NCBI GenBank assembly: GCA_951804945.1 | Contig: OX638159.1 | Location: 39,618,001 to 39,682,000, forward strand | Direction: 5' to 3' | DNA: 64,000 bases | Source of the DNA: Podarcis cretensis | Taxonomy: Eukaryota | Shown here: piece after piece, positions 36,501 through 44,807 of the stretch | Layout: every line of letters starts with the position of its first letter | Position numbering within the stretch: the first letter of the stretch is position 1 | Notes under the pieces: generated by a model | Database searches by the model: none | Told to the model about the DNA's origin: nothing | What the model saw: only the letters and a program-made list of their open reading frames with translations | Made by a program: the position numbers and the translations under genes

Positions 36501-39500
36501 CAAAATATCTTTTACCACTTGGTTACTGTCATTATGTACACTGATGTAGCTGGAAAATGTCTCTCCTAAGAATATATTTCTGTTCAAGAAGGGAGGAGAA
36601 AAGAGAACTGTTAAAACCATTGCTTTGAATAAATCTCTAAAATCTATTATTGCCACTTTTAACAACAGCATGGACTTCTGTTATCGTACCATGAAAGCCA
36701 TATTTATAGAGTTCCATTTTTGCATCTTCTAGCATTGATGTTATTGCATGCACATGGCTAAAAGCCTCTGAAGACAATCTTGTGGTTTCAGTATTTAACA
36801 TAGTGCCTAAGCACAGCACTATGTTGACAAGAACAAACAAAATGACAATAAGTAAGCTAGTCTGAGCTAACTAAGGCACACAGCATGGATGTGTACAGTG
36901 GTGCCTCGCAAGACGAAATTAATCCGTTCCGTGAGGCTCTTCGTATAGCGGGTTTTTCGTCTTGTGAAGCAAGCCCAATGACAGCTTAGCGGATTAGCGC
37001 TATTAGCGGTTTGGCGGCTTTTAGCGGTTTGGCGGCTTATCAGTGGATCAGCTGATAAGCGGCTTAGCGGCTTAGGAAAAGGGGGGGAAAGGGGGGGAAC
37101 CCGCAGGAACTCACAAGACATTTTCGTCTTGCGAAGCAAGCCCATAGGGAAATTCGTTTTGCGAAGCGCCTCCAAAACTGAAAACCTTTTCGTCCAGCGG
37201 GTTTTCCGTCTTGCGAGGCGTTCATCTTGTGGGGCACCACTGTATATGAGTATGTTGTGTAGATTTTAAAAGGGAATTAGGGAGATTTGTGTGTGGAAGA
37301 TAAGGATAACATGATGGCTATATGACACCTCCAGGTTCATAGGCAACACCACTGGCTGGGGAATCAAGAGTGGGAAAGAATTATTGTCCTTACATTCTGC
37401 TTGCAGGCTTTCCATAGCTATCTGATCGGTCACTATGGGAAAGAGGACGGTGGACTAGATAGGTTTAGTCAAAAGCAGAAGGGCTGTTCTTATATTCAAA
37501 ATCAGGGTCTGGTAGTTGCTAGCTTTACTTTTAACTCACCACCTTTGTTTAACAGTAAAGATCTCTTCATGCTTCATCCAATGACTGTTTACTCAGAGGT
37601 ACCACTGATTCAAAGTTAGAAACCATAATAGATGGCTTTCTAACCCTGTAACGCAAGAGGCCCTTGGAAACAGTTTGTGGCAGGGGGAAATTAAGAATAA
37701 TAATAGACTTTATCCATAGGAAGGACAAGGAAGATAGGCTTAGGCCACAGTCCTAAGAGCAAGGGTCAGCAACCTATTTCAGCCGTGGGCCGGTCCACTG
37801 TCCCTCAGACCATGTGGTGGGCCGGATTATATTGGGGGGGGGATGAACAAATTCCTATGCCCTACAAATAACCCAGAGATGCATTTTAAATAAAAGCACA
37901 CATTCTACTCATATAAAAACACACTGATTCCCAGACCATCCGCAGGCTGGATTGAGTAGGCAATTGGGTCGCATCCGGCCCACGGACCTTAGGTTGCCTA
38001 CCCCTGCCTAAGAGCATTCTAAGTTGGAAGCAAGTACAACTGAAACCGCTGGTATTTACAATATTAGGACAGTTCTGCACAGGACTAGAGATCATAAAAC
38101 AATTATCTCAACAAATCTACACATCTATATACAATTCTTACCCAAAATTCTGAGGCAAAGTCAACATTTCCCCAAGCATTAATGTTTCTGCTCCTTTTAC
38201 TGTGGAAGGATCATCTTTCATTAACTGGTTAAACAGATCTCCTACAGTAATATAAAATTATATGTCAGGTCAACTACCGTATATTGATATTTCTATATAA
38301 ACTAATTAAATACTTTAATTGATTAGCCACTGGCTTTTAACTTATTATAATATATTTTCATCTGAACATACGATTGAAAATACATGTGAAGTGGCATTCC
38401 TGTTAGAAGGAAGGGACATTTAATCTTTTTGATATACTAAATGGCAGAGTTCTAAACAAGCACCTCTAAGCAGTTTTGTAATATGTATAAACAGCAGTTT
38501 AAACAGACTTTTTGTAGTTCCTTGAATTTTATTGTTTCTTTAAAAAAAACACCAATAAAACATTCAACAGTAATTTATCTGCTATCTTTGGAAGGAAAAG
38601 TGACCCAGAAACTTCTTGGCAAACATTGGCTCCAGTTCTCATGAATTCTTGCAAGACCTGCTAGCTGAGATCTTCTGATTTTTGTTGTTGTTTTGAAAGG
38701 CTATCATTTCATGTCTCTCAGTTCTATGGGGTGTTACAGGGAAAGTATTCCATGTGGGCATACATGGCAATAAATGAAGCAATGCCAAAAAAAGGAAAAT
38801 AAATTTTAAGTTTCTGTACTCTGGTTTGAAAAAGAAGGGATCTGAAATGTCCATGTGCTCCGCATAGTGGTGAACATCAATCATTCCACATTACTGAGTT
38901 TTTAGCTTGCTAGGACTGTGCTAACACACCCACACTCCCACTATGCTGATGACTGGGGACTTACGATGGTGCATAAGTGTGTTCCTACTGGCCTCTGCCA
39001 ATGGAGAGAAACATGCAATAACCTGTACATTGTTAGCAGAAAAGTTTCCTACAGAACCCAGGTTTCATGAAGTATCGCAATTGCACTGGTTCACACACAG
39101 GCAAACTACTGGTCACAATCCCTGAGCTTTAACTTAACTACAATATTTGACACTGGTGTTGTTCAGCAACACTCCACACATTCAAGTACAGTATTTTCAG
39201 GTATACACTGGCCTAACAACAAATCTAACAGCAGTGTGCCTCTATATGTAGATCTACCAGAGTTTGCGTATTATTTAACACCATAACAAATTTTACCTGG
39301 CAAGTCTCTCTCTTCACAGGTCACAGGAATATTGGTGAACAATGTAGGTTTGGTCAGCCTCATTACTGTGAATTTAGAAAGCAAATTCCACATTAATCAC
39401 ACACCTCATCACCAGGACTTCACTAGAAGCTCAACATATTTAACTTCAAAATAAGAACCATAAGACCTGTTTGGATATTACGGTACCTTGTCCCTGGAAT

Positions 39501-42500
39501 TCTGCCCAAGTTTTATGTATTTTGTTTGTTTGTACTGAGCACAAGAAAAGGAGATGAAATTGGGCTTAATGTGAAAACAACTAGAAATGCAGGAAGTGTT
39601 CATTCACATAGATACTTGAGCTAAGACAAAAAGCATGCATATCCATTTTTTTAAAATCCCACCAATAATATTTTTTTAAAAATGTTTTAGGATAATCATG
39701 GATAACTGCAAAAATCATTTTAACAAAACACAATACTCATAACCGCCTTGATCCTTATCCAACCATGTTGAGAGTACCATTTGTAAGCAGTTGTTTGGTC
39801 CAAAGGATAGTTGACTCCCCCTAAGGCAGACTGGGGGGGCAGGGAGGTTTGCAGTCAACCAAAGCTTTCCCCATTCATTCAAATGTAGATATTAAGGCTG
39901 GACCAGGGCCTGTAAACTATCGATTGTAGACCCTCCAAGTGTCCCTATTTTCCAGGGACAGTCCTGGATTTACAGAAGCTGTTCAAATTTCTGATTTTAT
40001 CCCAAAATGTCCTGCTTTTCCTTAGTATGTCCCAATTTTCATCAGAGATATATTGGAGGATATGGAGTTATCCAACCCCTGAAGATAGCCCTGTACAGGG
40101 AAGATTTTTAATGTTTAAAGTTTTACAGTATTATGTTTTTATATATGTTGGAAGCAGCCCACAGTTGCTGGCGTAACCCAGTCAGATGCTGAGGTATAAA
40201 AAGAAGAATAAGAAGATAGAATAGGACATTCCTATTTTTATCGAAGAAATGTCGGAGGGTATGTGATTGCAATAGAATTTGCTTACAAATGACCATGTTT
40301 AGATGGCATACATTTTCTAAGGACTGCTAAGAACACAAAGAAGTCTTGCCTCTGTACAGAACATAATGGCCAGTAGGACAGCATTCTGCCCACTGCCGAT
40401 GTGACTACAATCTATAGGAAGCAAAAATGTAGGCCAAACACACAAAAAGGGAAACAAATATATCAGCATGATGGACTTCATAAAATTAAAGTTTAGAAAT
40501 TATTACTCCAACACAGCAGCCTTTCTTTTTATTGTTCATTAATTTTAGACAAATCATTCCAAACAAATGTTTTTTCCTCTAATTTTCAATAAATCCATAC
40601 TCTGAAAAAAGTCAATCCTCTAATCAAAGGGTACATATATAGAGAACATGACTTACTATAGCTCAGAATCTTGAGTTCTTTCTACGTGAGCGAAGAAATA
40701 TACAAGGAGGGCTTCTAATTTAAATAAAATGGAAAATGCCCAAGATAAGCTAATTACTTCCCTTCTGCCCCCCCACCACCACCACAGATTTTTTTCAAAA
40801 ACATTGTAAGGCAACAAAGTGTATTTAAAATATAACATTTCACAGAAAGTAGCAATGCCTTGTTATAAAGCTACAGACTATGTATGATTCCATATTTGTG
40901 AACAAACAAATTTATTTTCCCCAAAAGGTTTAATTTTTCTCTAAGGTTGTTGGCAACATATTCACAGTACAGTATATCACAGAAAACTGAAATCTGCCCT
41001 TCACATCTCTGGATCGTAGCATTACAAGATGGCAGTTCATTGTGTTTGATCATCTTGTTGAGCTTTACCCAAATGTCCTCCAACGTTTGACTACCAAATG
41101 TAGATGGTTCTATTATCCACTGGGCTCTATAGAATGCATGGAGCTTTAATTTGTCTAAAGTGCTCTGCAGTTCTCTAGATAAAGGAAGAATCTTGTCTTT
41201 GAGCTTGGTGTTGGGAAGAGACACACTCCAAGACCTTCTCAGCTTCTGCTTGCTGCTTGATGTTTGCTTTTCCAAATTGCTTAAATTGTTTCTTTCATGC
41301 TCAGCTTGCAAACACTTCCCAGCTTTTACATCAGGATCAAATTCCTTAAGCCCTGCAGTACAGTCATAAGATGGGGAGCAGCAAGCAGTTTCTATGGCTG
41401 CAATATGTTGTTTCATTTGCTCTACTTCTTCACCAGAAATAACTGGAGCGATTCTTTTAGGTTTGAGGGGAAGTTGACGCAAGTCATTTGGAAACCAGGG
41501 TATGAAACTTGGGAGCTTCCTAACAGGAAATTCTTTCAGTGCCTCTTCTGCGATTCTTTGCAATGCTGCAGGGTCCCTTTGCCATGCTCGATAGTGTAGA
41601 ATCACCTCCATGCTTGTACAACAGGAATCCACATGTTCTTATTTTAAATGTTTCTTGGACAGCAGCTTCATCACTAATGATATAATCACTTAAAAGAATC
41701 TTTTCATGCCATGTGCTGTGCAGTTCAGAAGAAAACAGGACCTAGAGCAGAAGTATTGCAAGTAATAAGACATGCTAGCAGTTTTCCCACTAAAGTTCAC
41801 CATCATGTTGACGCAGTTATCGCTAGAAAATGCTATAGTAAGTGTAATGGACGGCAAACGTATGCAGTTGGAAACCCAAACCACAACAGCACCCCCTCGG
41901 ACTTATAGTTTTTTTGTTTCTGTCAGACATCTGGGTTTGCTGCAACTGCTAATTCAAACCCGAATGCTACATAAGTTTCTCCAATACAGAAATTAAACAA
42001 GTGAGATGGCCCTACTGTAAGGGAGCTGTGATACACCACCAAATTTCTGAACTTCTGTGAGTGCCAAACAACATGCTGTCTTAAACATATATCTCGGCAT
42101 TGCACAACTGTTTCCTTCCAACTCTAAAGTGGCTTCCCAATTGTGGAATGCCCTCCCCTCACAGACTCAGCTGATGCCAACGCTGATCGGTTTTATGCAT
42201 CGTGTAGACATCCCTATCTGAGCAAGCATTTTGAAGGACTGGATATGTTTTCTCATCCTCATGGTGTGATATAAATCAGATTTATTGTTGTACTGGTTTG
42301 CTTTTTCAGATTGTTTATTTTTATTGCTAAACAAATAAATAGCAGTCACAGAAGGGGCAGAATCAGGAACATGGGCTGCAGTGCGTGGGGGGGGTTAACC
42401 CTTTTACTTCCACACTGTGGCCCTGATGACAATTTCTTCACATACTGTTTGTCACAGGCAGGAAGCTTTCATGCAGTAGTAGTAGCTGTTGCTTATGACT

Positions 42501-44151
42501 CCTAAGAAGAAGGAAGGATAGCAGAGTTGGAATGTTACTATAGTAGGATAATAATTGAAAAAAGAGGAAGAGAAGCTGGGAGGACTGAAATTATTCATGT
42601 TCATGGTAACATCTGAAGTGTATGCATGCACATGGGGTCACAATTTTAGACTGGATAGTGTTCCAAGTACTGTCTATGTTATTTGTGTTGTCACAGATGA
42701 AAGTTAGCCTTAGAAGCAGGAAGGCAAAAAATGTTTTAAAAGAGATTCCTGGAACCATTCTTCCACAAATCTGCATCTTTGGGTCCTTACTTTGAAGGTC
42801 CCCCTTTTTTCTTGCTTGCTCTGCAATTCTTTAGAGCATCTACTCCACAGTGTGTATGTACTTTCTCTCTTTAGTGTTCCTTGCTGGCAACTACAGAAAT
42901 ATATATTGCCATGAAATGCCTTTAAAGCATTTCTGCCTACAGAAGTGTATTGGGATTGTGCTTTGTGATGCTCATACACTCCACTTCCCCATAAGGAAAA
43001 TATTTCAAAAGAGTTGCCTTTTTCATCAACTCATTATTTGTAAGAACTTGAGGGGATACTGGGACAGGAGATAGGAAGGGTTCTAATTTCAACAACTGCT
43101 TAGGTACTGGTCCCAATCAATGCACTCTCCACACATCCTTCACAGCTTTTCTGGTACTCTTAGTGGCCATTTTTTCTCAGGAGAATGTTTCCATGTGGTA
43201 AACTCATACAACTGAAACTTCAAGGAAGCAGGTGAGAACTAGTTCCATTAATCTTGTTCTTCCATCTGAGGTTGCAGAAATGGGTTTGGTTTTTTCCTAA
43301 ATAGCTTGTGTTGTGTTACAAAGAAAGGATATATATTGGAAGGACTGAGGGATTTCCTCTTTAGCAGCTGATTGTATCTAAGGCTTGACAGATTTTTATT
43401 TATTTTTTAGTTCAAGGAAATGTTCCATTTTCTGGGAGCTGACGAGAAGATAACAGGCACCCCCTTTTTCAAAGCTCACTCCCAGAGCAGCTGTATAATA
43501 TTGCAGCCCCGCTTGCTTTAGAAATGTTTACACACCACCCATCTCTGAAACTTGTTCTGCAGCAACATTGTCCCTCTTGAGTCATAGCTGGGCAAGCGCA
43601 AGAAAGGCCTGCCAACTGAAGATTTCGCAATGGATTTTGAGATGCAGTTCTTGCTTATACAAAACTGCACAAAAAAACAAGAACACCTTACCATTTCCTA
43701 GGGAAGCGATGATGTCCTTATCTTTTAAAAGAAATCTGAAAACGTTGGGAGATTCCCCGTCCTGAGTGCACACTCTGGCTTGAACCAATGAGGCTGGATC
43801 TAGGGTCACTTTCCGAGCTCTTTATTCAACAACGTGCCCTGGCAGGTGGAATAAGGAACCGACCTTTTGAAAAGGATAGCCCACTTCTCCTGCAAATTAG
43901 CTTTGGGCCACCAACCTGCCGATCCCTCCCAGGTTTAATTGCCTTAGACCCACCCGCTTTGGTCTCCTAAAAACAGCGGCCAAGGGAGCCGCCGCAGAAA
44001 GGAAGCGGGGCTGGATTCTCTTCTTCTGGTCCCTTGCAGGATTTGCTTTTCAGCTGCTAAGCCCCAGGCCAAATCCCAAGGAGCGGAGGAAGCGAGAGCG
44101 AGTACCTTTCAGGGCCAAGAGATGCTCCTGCTTGGGCTGGGTAACATCCAT
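24440..44151 (-). CDS. TRAPPC13: Trafficking protein particle complex subunit 13 (TRAPPIII); 13 exons, 416 aa (417 with the alternative NAGNAG acceptor)
   Basis: complement join(44106-44151,39297-39365,38142-38241,36495-36579,35924-36051,35428-35500,33624-33668,31723-31740,28073-28206,27063-27261,25683-25783,24864-25011,24440-24544) = 1251 nt, open frame, GT-AG introns. Confidence 0.96.
24864..25011 (-). CDS. TRAPPC13: TRAPPC13 exon 12 (alternative start 25014)
   Basis: [49 protein letters not shown]; acceptor CAG CAG. Confidence 0.94.
25683..25783 (-). CDS. TRAPPC13: TRAPPC13 exon 11
   Basis: [33 protein letters not shown]. Confidence 0.94.
27063..27261 (-). CDS. TRAPPC13: TRAPPC13 exon 10
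   Basis: [66 protein letters not shown]. Confidence 0.95.
27667..27910. mobile_element. Tc1/mariner (Tigger/Tc2-like) MITE
   Basis: TA|CAGTCGTACCTTGGTTCTCGAAC ... GTTCAAGAACCGAGGTACGACTG|TA; about 23-bp TIRs with a TA TSD. Confidence 0.85.
28073..28206 (-). CDS. TRAPPC13: TRAPPC13 exon 9
   Basis: [44 protein letters not shown]. Confidence 0.94.
29181..29342. repeat. Long near-perfect inverted repeat (74/77-bp arms, 11-nt spacer)
   Basis: Arms 29181-29254 and 29266-29342 differ by 2 substitutions and one 3-nt indel. Confidence 0.92.
31723..31740 (-). CDS. TRAPPC13: TRAPPC13 18-nt microexon (SDLSSV)
   Basis: Long polypyrimidine tract ...ttttcccattag|AGTGACCTCAGTTCTGTG|gtaatt; phase 0/0. Confidence 0.85.
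32955..33125 (-). mobile_element. CR1 LINE 3' end
   Basis: agaatcatagaactgtagagttgg... is the reverse complement of the CR1 3' terminus ending in (ATTCTAT/GATTCT) repeats. Confidence 0.65.
33624..33668 (-). CDS. TRAPPC13: TRAPPC13 exon 7
   Basis: [15 protein letters not shown]. Confidence 0.93.
35428..35500 (-). CDS. TRAPPC13: TRAPPC13 exon 6
   Basis: [24 protein letters not shown]. Confidence 0.94.
35924..36051 (-). CDS. TRAPPC13: TRAPPC13 exon 5
   Basis: [42 protein letters not shown]. Confidence 0.94.
36495..36579 (-). CDS. TRAPPC13: TRAPPC13 exon 4
   Basis: [28 protein letters not shown]. Confidence 0.94.
36896..37242. mobile_element. Tc1/mariner-type MITE with internal TTAGCGG-like microrepeats
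   Basis: TA|CAGTGGTGCCTCGCAAGACG ... CATCTTGTGGGGCACCACTG|TA; internal repeats of ttagcgg and cgtcttgcg. Confidence 0.85.
37760..38006. mobile_element. hAT non-autonomous DNA transposon (MITE)
   Basis: CAAGGGTCAGCAACCT ... AGGTTGCCTACCCCTG; perfect 8-bp TSD CCTAAGAG at 37752-37759 and 38007-38014. Confidence 0.85.
38142..38241 (-). CDS. TRAPPC13: TRAPPC13 exon 3
   Basis: [33 protein letters not shown]. Confidence 0.94.
39297..39365 (-). CDS. TRAPPC13: TRAPPC13 exon 2
   Basis: [23 protein letters not shown]. Confidence 0.94.
39927..40263. mobile_element. Composite TIR element (MITE-like) with a duplicated 3' terminus
   Basis: Termini TAGACCCTCCAA ... TCGGAGGGTATG; a similar terminus also ends near 40063; flanks cgattg/tgattg may be a TSD. 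Confidence 0.5.
40528..40533 (-). terminator. Candidate SHLD3 polyadenylation signal inside TRAPPC13 intron 1
   Basis: Minus-strand AATAAA about 340 nt after the SHLD3 stop. Confidence 0.5.
40871..41611 (-). CDS. SHLD3: Shieldin complex subunit 3 (RINN1), single coding exon nested in TRAPPC13 intron 1; 246 aa
   Basis: ATG in strong context (agcATGg) at 41611 gives MEVILHY...[14 protein letters not shown]...[13 protein letters not shown]. Contains the FxPWFP and PxxxAP REV7-binding motifs, [10 protein letters not shown], and a C-terminal eIF4E-like region ending [13 protein letters not shown]. The ORF-track start at 41632 is a GTG. Confidence 0.93.
   Translation of the reverse strand: MEVILHYRAWQRDPAALQRIAEEALKEFPVRKLPSFIPWFPNDLRQLPLKPKRIAPVISGEEVEQMKQHIAAIETACCSPSYDCTAGLKEFDPDVKAGKCLQAEHERNNLSNLEKQTSSSKQKLRRSWSVSLPNTKLKDKILPLSRELQSTLDKLKLHAFYRAQWIIEPSTFGSQTLEDIWVKLNKMIKHNELPSCNATIQRCEGQISVFCDILYCEYVANNLREKLNLLGKINLFVHKYGIIHSL
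44106..44151 (-). CDS. TRAPPC13: TRAPPC13 exon 1 coding part (probably also exon 1 of SHLD3)
   Basis: [15 protein letters not shown], donor AAG|GTACT. Confidence 0.93.
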
Positions 44152-44714
44152 CGCTGCAGCCGCTCCCGGGCCTCTTCCTCCTTTACGGAATCAGCCGAGG
44201 CCCAACTTCCTCCGGCCGCGAACAAGAGGTTCACTCCCCGCCGGCTTTGGCCCGCTTCCTTCTCCCAGCTGTGCTCCTCGCAATGCAAGTCGCCTCCGCA
44301 ATCGAGCCAGAAACTACAATCCCCAGCGTGCTCTTTGGATCGTCCGTATCTCCATAGGCGCCTCTGCTTGCTTTTATTTCCTGCACCGTGGAAAAGGCGA
44401 GCTGTCAAAGTGATGCATGATGGGAGCTGTAGTTTTTTTTTTTAACGTCCCTCGGCGCCGCTATCATGGCGGCCAATGGCATAGTGGGAAACGGGGAGTG
44501 ACAAGAAACGGACATGCGCAGTGCTTAGAAACCACAGACCGGGTTAAGATACGGGGAAAGCGACCTTGTTGTGTGTGTTTTGACGTTTGTCTCCTTTACC
44601 TACGGCTCTCTTTGGTGACGTAGGCGCGTAACCCCGCCCCGTCTCCAGGGGGACACTCCGCTGTGGGAGCGGCGAAGGCAGCTTCTTCTTGGTCTTTCTC
44701 CTTCCTTCTCCAAG

Positions 44715-44807
44715 ATGGCCGCGCTAGGTGTAAACAAGGTCGGGGCTAGTGCGGGGCTGGATGCCGGGAGCAGGCAGAGCCGGAGTCCGGCCGGGCCTGT
44801 GGTGAAG
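44715..44807 (+). CDS. TRIM23: TRIM23 exon 1
   Basis: [31 protein letters not shown]; donor AAG|GTGAG. Confidence 0.92.

Follow-up and report, generated by a model that had tools for sequence, protein, structure and literature searches.

The SHLD3 locus

The window (the whole 64,000-nucleotide stretch of Podarcis cretensis contig OX638159.1 that was analysed) is DNA of a lacertid-like lizard. Our subject is its gene for shieldin subunit 3, SHLD3, and the upstream open reading frames (uORFs) that precede it in the mRNA; SHLD3 lies on the minus strand, as does TRAPPC13, the gene that surrounds it. Shieldin steers how double-strand breaks are repaired and how sensitive cells are to PARP inhibitors. 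By sequence similarity we assign the open reading frame (ORF) 41611-40871 (-) to SHLD3: its product is 97% identical to Podarcis muralis SHLD3 in a protein database search, it matches PDB entry 6kto_C, the solved human N-terminus, with E 1e-17, and the homology extends over the full length, including the N-terminal region solved with REV7/SHLD2. A Pfam search gave no match. The name TRAPPC13 was taken from the first-pass annotation of this DNA and agrees with the N-termini of database proteins.

SHLD3 is situated wholly inside TRAPPC13 intron 1 (exon 1 ends at 44106; exon 2 is 39365-39297), and an acceptor at 41742|41741 (-) stands 130 nucleotides (nt) upstream of its ATG (41611). The features on which the argument depends are these (aa, amino acids; CDS, coding sequence):

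44106..44289 (-): exon 1 common to TRAPPC13 and SHLD3; the 5' limit is the furthest contig end, with no mapped start site
44106..44151 (-): TRAPPC13 AUG and 46 coding nt, the first part of the 20-aa uORF1 in SHLD3 mRNA; G at -3, G at +4
41742..44105 (-): intron of the SHLD3 mRNA, 2364 nt, equal to the 5' part of TRAPPC13 intron 1; contig joint 41739/44104, cut +2, CT..AC
41612..41741 (-): leader of the SHLD3 terminal exon, 130 nt, GC 36%, unstructured, conserved in close relatives
40871..41611 (-): SHLD3 CDS, 246 aa, single exon
39297..39365 (-): TRAPPC13 exon 2, whose acceptor competes for exon 1; joint 39365/44106 in three of four runs

Splicing of SHLD3 onto TRAPPC13 exon 1

Seven of 23 runs were examined. 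They come from relatives and not from the organism of the full window, and their kind is only guessed to be RNA. The splice from exon 1 to 41741, predicted in the first-pass annotation, does occur: the joint 44106->41741, with GT-AG ends, is present in contigs of three of four runs (X2, X13 and X16, from organisms A, B and C). These contigs run on through the leader and the CDS, and the same three runs also have 44106->39365. The fourth run, X23, which is small and is the sole guessed-RNA run bearing the label of the source species, covers neither exon. In a second batch of four runs, contigs of X1 and X16 stop at 41741 with exon-1 letters as loose ends (the match to exon 1 was made by eye), X14 (organism B) reads through 41741 into the intron (41742-41898), and X22, the kind of which is unknown, is continuous. 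The unspliced X14 contig may represent intron retention, pre-mRNA or DNA. No joint from exon 1 to any other SHLD3 acceptor was seen in the seven runs, the contigs of which drop rare forms. Exon-1 contig ends are spread over 44229-44289, with the donor linked to 41741 as well as to 39365. For TRAPPC13 exon 1, SHLD3 serves as an alternative terminal exon; the depth of contigs with its junction is 0.04-0.18 of that of the TRAPPC13 junction, a crude figure.

The annotated locus of other amniotes is similar, as SHLD3 is filed within the TRAPPC13 unit there: in database entries of rat, pig and dog the gene name given for the SHLD3 protein is TRAPPC13, in keeping with a transcription unit shared across amniotes. 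SHLD3 was reportedly called an alternative transcript of the TRAPPC13 locus by Noordermeer in 2018, and we take 2410002O22Rik to be Trappc13.

Database models from Peromyscus, Vipera and Meleagris (P0252/P0253/P0255/P0256, P0306, P0173) have the SHLD3 exon spliced into TRAPPC13 exon 2. Such fusion models leave the SHLD3 exon at differing places (in the window, about 40960-41000 to 39365). A role of the SHLD3 exon as a poison cassette was considered and dropped, as the read-through models of the three species exit the exon at different places.

Upstream AUGs of the SHLD3 mRNA

All five uORFs listed in the first-pass annotation are found in the sequence. We add a sixth, which begins just inside the TRAPPC13 start:

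41725..41741 (-): end of uORF1, 5 codons and TGA past the junction, completing the 20-aa uORF
41704..41712 (-): 2-aa uORF, 12 nt past the uORF1 stop
41690..41707 (-): 5-aa uORF, 17 nt past the uORF1 stop
41639..41671 (-): 10-aa uORF in the SHLD3 frame, stopping 27 nt ahead of the ATG; its TAA shares one base with a candidate second acceptor
41602..41634 (-): 10-aa out-of-frame uORF, starting 23 nt upstream of the SHLD3 AUG and overlapping it by 10 nt
44109..44147 (-): additional 12-aa uORF, weak context, out of frame, 4 nt inside the TRAPPC13 AUG

Counted from the uORF1 stop, the four upstream AUGs (uAUGs) of the leader stand at 12, 17, 53 and 90 nt and the SHLD3 AUG at 113 nt. They do belong to the mature mRNA, as junction, leader and CDS occur on single contigs in organisms A, B and C. 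No further AUG occurs from the TRAPPC13 AUG out to 44289, the outermost end of an exon-1 contig; the next one upstream is at 44355. Both the sixth uAUG (44147) and the TRAPPC13 AUG are unaltered in X2 and X16, where all exon-1 differences were enumerated. The uORF at 44147 would capture part of the ribosomes that leak past the TRAPPC13 AUG, in both mRNAs.

A few observations from other species concern the shared first exon. The human TRAPPC13 5' untranslated region has uORFs of 17 and 6 codons, which SHLD3 would share (PMC7494916). Translational efficiency (TE) of mouse Trappc13 drops on Denr knock-down (log2 fold change -0.68, adjusted p 9e-4; PMC11790910), and that of human TRAPPC13 shows no drop in DENR knock-out HeLa cells (+0.24; PMC7494916).

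Chance and conservation

The number of uAUGs is not unusual. Four or more ATGs in a 130-nt stretch have a probability of 0.23 (1604 intron windows), 0.28 (832 GC-matched windows) or 0.62 (5000 shuffles), and the shuffle mean of 3.9 equals the count of the leader. An overlapping uORF together with an upstream one arises with probability 0.33 in intron windows and 0.51 in shuffles. Both the four-uAUG count and the overlapping-plus-upstream layout are at chance level.

The leader as a whole, among close relatives, is conserved beyond chance. Variable sites number 2/130 in the leader vs 15/157 in the intron (p=0.005) and 9/104 at third codon positions (p=0.013); against all CDS sites (15/312) the p value is 0.17. 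The pool for these counts consisted of X1, X13, X14, X16 and X22, the intron being represented by X14 and X22 only; X2 was excluded, with only 5 of its 11 differences enumerated, and X13, X14 and X16 have one unlisted difference each. None of the 22 uAUG and stop bases of the leader is hit by a variant in the five relative contigs. The leader shows no structure (z +1.7) and is single-copy in its own genome. An Rfam scan produced one match only, in the intron and at chance level (E 0.81), and two metagenome scans gave no vertebrate SHLD3 loci.

Deeper conservation was judged from protein N-termini because no bird or mammal leader DNA was obtained. Counted back from a conserved Glu, an overlapping ATG requires His, Tyr, Asp, Asn or Ile at codon -9 and a codon that starts with G at -8. 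Of 28 distinct N-terminal extensions, one would permit such an ATG besides the window itself: that of Phrynosoma, with His-Val as in the window. This set favours proteins whose annotation includes an extension, and it cannot reveal overlapping uORFs with a start further upstream. Codon -8 (window 41630-41632) is Val, Leu, Met or Pro depending on the amniote: Met in snakes, rodents and peafowl, Leu in most birds, Pro in tenrecs. In the bird, snake, rodent and tenrec extensions that show this codon, an overlapping ATG is excluded at the homologous position. In the last nine leader codons no out-of-frame ATG is possible in hummingbirds and tenrecs, and a Ser-Cys pair could conceal one in mouse. 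Apart from some lizards, the homologous codon does not allow the overlapping uAUG. The Met at codon -8 may indicate an in-frame (near-cognate) start position upstream.

Comparison with ATF4

The first-pass annotation likened this leader to the delayed-reinitiation design of ATF4 and ATF5. One part of the comparison stands: an upstream uORF is followed by an out-of-frame uORF (41634-41602) that overlaps the main start. The remainder does not. According to the available part of PMC3434475, ATF4 has a uORF1 of 3 aa and a uORF2 of 59 aa that overlaps the CDS by 83 nt, and therefore starts 97 nt ahead of the main AUG. An ATF4-type switch has a very short, reinitiation-permissive first uORF, whereas that of SHLD3 has 20 aa, and the uORFs of 2 and 5 aa come only 12-17 nt after it. 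The overlapping uORF of SHLD3 has 10 aa and a 10-nt overlap, and its AUG is 23 nt from the main AUG, in place of the 97 nt that in ATF4 give enough distance for ternary-complex reloading. Further, the SHLD3 leader has three additional uAUGs in the spacer. Finally, an ATF4-type switch would be expected to keep its uORF layout across vertebrates, while in SHLD3 the overlapping uAUG is not retained across amniotes and, in the mouse data described below, the orthologue is not induced.

We compared the two geometries in a toy scanning model, the parameters of which we assumed, with the 87-nt spacer of ATF4. The ATF4 geometry yields up to 2.6-fold induction in this model, while the SHLD3 leader yields 1.05-fold at maximum, with about 5% of scanning ribosomes predicted to reach SHLD3. 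Among 400 random parameter draws, induction above 1.5-fold appears in 5 for SHLD3 vs 190 for the ATF4 geometry. Judged by the model, stress induction of SHLD3 via its leader is unlikely.

Translation of Shld3 in mouse cells

The evidence on stress consists of two mouse ribosome-profiling sets with the eIF2-alpha S51A mutation, in both of which Shld3 counts are low; the values that follow come from the available parts of PMC9299849 (carcinoma cells, CDS-only footprints) and PMC10962698 (embryonic stem (ES) cells in leukaemia inhibitory factor). In wild-type carcinoma cells Shld3 TE is 0.44 with vehicle and 0.46 with bortezomib, a 1.06-fold change (p=0.92), and in S51A cells it is 0.31 and 0.22 (PMC9299849). 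In the same set Ifrd1 is up 1.57-fold and the z-scores of Atf4 and Atf5 are up (Fig 3 sheet); the TE rows listed there include none for Atf4, Atf5, Ddit3 or Ppp1r15a. In ES cells the log2 fold change of TE in S51A vs wild type is -0.95 for Atf4 (adjusted p 0.03) and +0.82 for Shld3 (adjusted p 0.22), so the wild type/S51A ratio of Shld3 is 0.54, in the direction opposite to Atf4 (PMC10962698). The two sets differ in sign on S51A, and Shld3 induction is seen in neither (PMC9299849, PMC10962698). These low-count mouse data give no clear sign of a rise of translation on eIF2-alpha phosphorylation. As mouse does not have the overlapping uAUG of the lizard, a switch confined to lizards is not strictly excluded.

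The other half of the claim, that SHLD3 is kept scarce by translational control, fares better. The splice is real, the uAUGs and stops of the leader are free of variants, and in mouse the TE of Shld3 is below that of Trappc13: the ratio is 0.24-0.41 in ES cells (PMC10962698) and 0.22-0.59 in carcinoma cells (PMC9299849), less than 0.6 in 8/8 conditions, whatever the cause in mouse. Shld3 RNA is 0.13-0.16 of Trappc13 in the PMC10962698 rows available, and the footprint density is 0.03-0.06 of that of Trappc13. No SHLD3 row was found in the human uORF tables searched (PMC10032668, 6 files; PMC7494916), nor a SHLD3 match among the PMC12119373 supplement rows listed, and in the PMC11790910 supplement the Shld3 footprints are given as NA.

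Probable constitutive damping and its alternatives

The explanation that we prefer, with modest confidence, is that SHLD3 is expressed on TRAPPC13 exon 1 and that the 20-codon uORF and the four uAUGs hold its synthesis constitutively low, probably without stress induction. The shared exon 1, the junction, the uORFs and the close-relative conservation of the leader were observed here; mRNA share, TE and stress response are those of mouse. A minority of transcripts would join exon 1 to 41741 and not to TRAPPC13 exon 2, a minority share being suggested by contig depths and by mouse RPKM (reads per kilobase per million) values. The strong TRAPPC13 AUG, the frame of which stops 5 codons past the junction, would then take most of the scanning ribosomes, and those that leak past it or resume scanning would be thinned at 41712, 41707, 41671 and 41634, so that the remaining ribosomes may initiate at the strong SHLD3 AUG. 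With ternary complex loaded more slowly, ribosomes would be able to skip the uAUGs but also the SHLD3 AUG; as this AUG is only 23 nt beyond the last uAUG, gain and loss are predicted to cancel, and a flat response would be expected in the lizard.

Several points weigh against this explanation. As the leader has only 2 variants, chance alone would be expected to spare the 22 critical bases. Splicing signals could lie behind the conservation, and selection on the uAUGs themselves is not thereby demonstrated. The TE data come from mouse, which has a different leader (with an in-frame Met at codon -8), and the relative TE of 0.2-0.6 in mouse is far above the 5% of the model, which would mean either a milder repression or a contribution of another isoform. 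Moreover, in the available part of PMC9299849 the wild type/S51A ratio of Shld3 TE is 2.15 under bortezomib (uncorrected p=0.026, 9-32 counts), which hints at some eIF2-alpha dependence, and the toy model gives 2.7-fold induction when uORF1 is combined with a nearly non-leaky overlapping AUG (p=0.98) and the other uAUGs are ignored.

The last two points are the ones that can be counted for an ATF4/ATF5-type delayed reinitiation, with a permissive uORF1, an inhibitory 41634 uORF and SHLD3 rising with eIF2-alpha phosphorylation, together with a ratio of 1.42 (p=0.07) in vehicle (PMC9299849, part available). However, the 2.15 is largely due to higher Shld3 mRNA in S51A cells, the wild-type cells of that set show no induction, and the available ES-cell values trend the opposite way. 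Given also that such a layout arises by chance in 33-51% of controls, that uORF1 and the AUG gap measure 20 aa and 23 nt vs 3 aa and 97 nt in the accessible account of ATF4, and that no bird, snake, rodent or tenrec N-terminus showing codon -8 is compatible with the homologous uAUG, we consider delayed reinitiation improbable. In our opinion it is also hardly probable that the uAUGs arose neutrally from the AT/TG-rich composition of a leader conserved for splicing, with SHLD3 low mainly through few transcripts and with efficient leak and reinitiation. Such neutrality would agree with a uAUG number equal to the shuffle mean, with the turnover of codon -8 (V, L, M, P) among amniotes and with the mouse RNA ratio of 0.13-0.16, which in the rows available outweighs the TE ratio; but in every spliced form observed the first AUG is the strong-context one of TRAPPC13, and in the same partial data mouse Shld3 has a TE 2-4-fold below that of Trappc13. 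An internal promoter or intron retention for much of the SHLD3 mRNA, in which case the TRAPPC13 AUG would not be its uORF, could account for the X14 contig that crosses 41741 into the intron and for an intron-1 contig in X13. We regard this as highly improbable, as contigs of four further guessed-RNA runs end at 41741 with a join to exon 1, no CpG island is present near 41-42 kb, and X14 is explicable by pre-mRNA or DNA.

A further alternative concerns the choice of splice site within the leader and depends on one more feature:

41637..41639 (-): candidate second acceptor AG|41637; the homologous splice is implied by P0037, P0127, P0079 and P0129, and no joint is seen in the lizard runs examined

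Joining at 41637, 27 nt before the SHLD3 start, would place the TRAPPC13 AUG in frame with SHLD3, with 24 extra codons and a predicted product of 270 aa; therefore the downstream uORFs would be bypassed. Three uORFs would be removed, and the 41634 AUG would lie inside an already translated frame. A minor mRNA of this kind might supply much of the protein, the 41741 isoform being the repressed state. An in-frame fusion that begins with the TRAPPC13 exon-1 peptide is indeed present in four NCBI 'isoform X5' models (Heliangelus, Calypte, Echinops and Tenrec; 273 aa), and Heliangelus and Tenrec have the short SHLD3 form as well. The AG of the window is at the same distance from the conserved Glu-Val of SHLD3, the frame is open from there, and the downstream acceptor position is equal in lizard, hummingbirds and tenrecs. 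The last nine leader codons are free of indels among lizard, bird and tenrec, with 6/9 residues equal between lizard and hummingbird. In the toy model, 1% use of 41637 would yield about 15% of SHLD3 output. On the other hand, no 41637 joint appears in any of the seven runs (their contigs drop rare forms), the pyrimidine tract at 41637 is weak (6/17 vs 12/17), and the in-frame form is found in only 4/310 database proteins, a fifth (P0005) being a gene prediction with a different join; in 74 representative proteins only the last 11 residues of the extensions were inspected. The isoform X5 entries are database models, with RNA support that is at best presumed, and a region search with P0037 returned no fusion proteins beyond those known. 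We therefore think it rather unlikely that the downstream acceptor is a major source of the protein. Its generalization is to be taken as equally tentative: SHLD3 dosage would depend on which of two 3' splice sites, separated by 104 nt, is used; the upstream one would turn the TRAPPC13 start codon into that of an inhibitory uORF preceding the four others, and the downstream one into that of an N-terminally extended SHLD3.

Relation to known systems and possible significance

Damping by uORFs, which the damping explanation invokes, is common: uORFs occur on about 50% of human mRNAs (PMC3434475, part available), and Klhdc8a has a repressive uORF leader that is only mildly eIF2-alpha-sensitive (PMC11790910). 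The SHLD3 leader resembles such ordinary repressive leaders in its several short uORFs and, as far as the mouse data go, in a lowered TE of the main ORF and little eIF2-alpha response; it differs in that uORF1 is opened by the true start codon of another protein, brought there by splicing. The nested arrangement is already in gene annotation, and the odd feature is this borrowed start codon. CDKN2A (INK4a/ARF) and MOCS2 are shared-first-exon genes with unrelated products, and the likeness to them is that one locus gives two unrelated proteins through sharing of exons or start codons. SHLD3 differs from these genes in that the partner's start codon is made to open a short uORF and that the second protein is encoded entirely within intron 1 of the host. 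In the literature searched, outside which most subscription papers lie and in which absence is therefore weak evidence, nothing was found on a translational consequence or an in-frame acceptor of SHLD3/TRAPPC13.

If the start codon of the host does throttle SHLD3, the level of SHLD3 mRNA would be a poor proxy for the protein, variants or guides in TRAPPC13 exon 1 or in the leader would affect both genes, and a TRAPPC13 start-loss variant is predicted to raise SHLD3. Stress induction of a shieldin subunit would have been of greater consequence, and does not look likely. The choice between two acceptors is the part that a specialist might find surprising: if it is true, a splicing shift of a few percent would change shieldin several-fold, and with it repair-pathway choice and the PARP-inhibitor response, with total mRNA little changed.

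Surrounding features

Downstream of SHLD3 an AATAAA at 40533 (-), 338 nt past the stop, is likely the poly(A) signal; contig pieces of X2 and X16 terminate near it, at 40571. Further 3', still in TRAPPC13 intron 1, a high-copy repeat occupies 39928-40263, where hundreds of unrelated contigs align. Upstream of exon 1 there appears to be a CpG-island bidirectional promoter at 44290-44745, and a gene on the (+) strand begins near 44700, the ORF of which looks like TRIM23.

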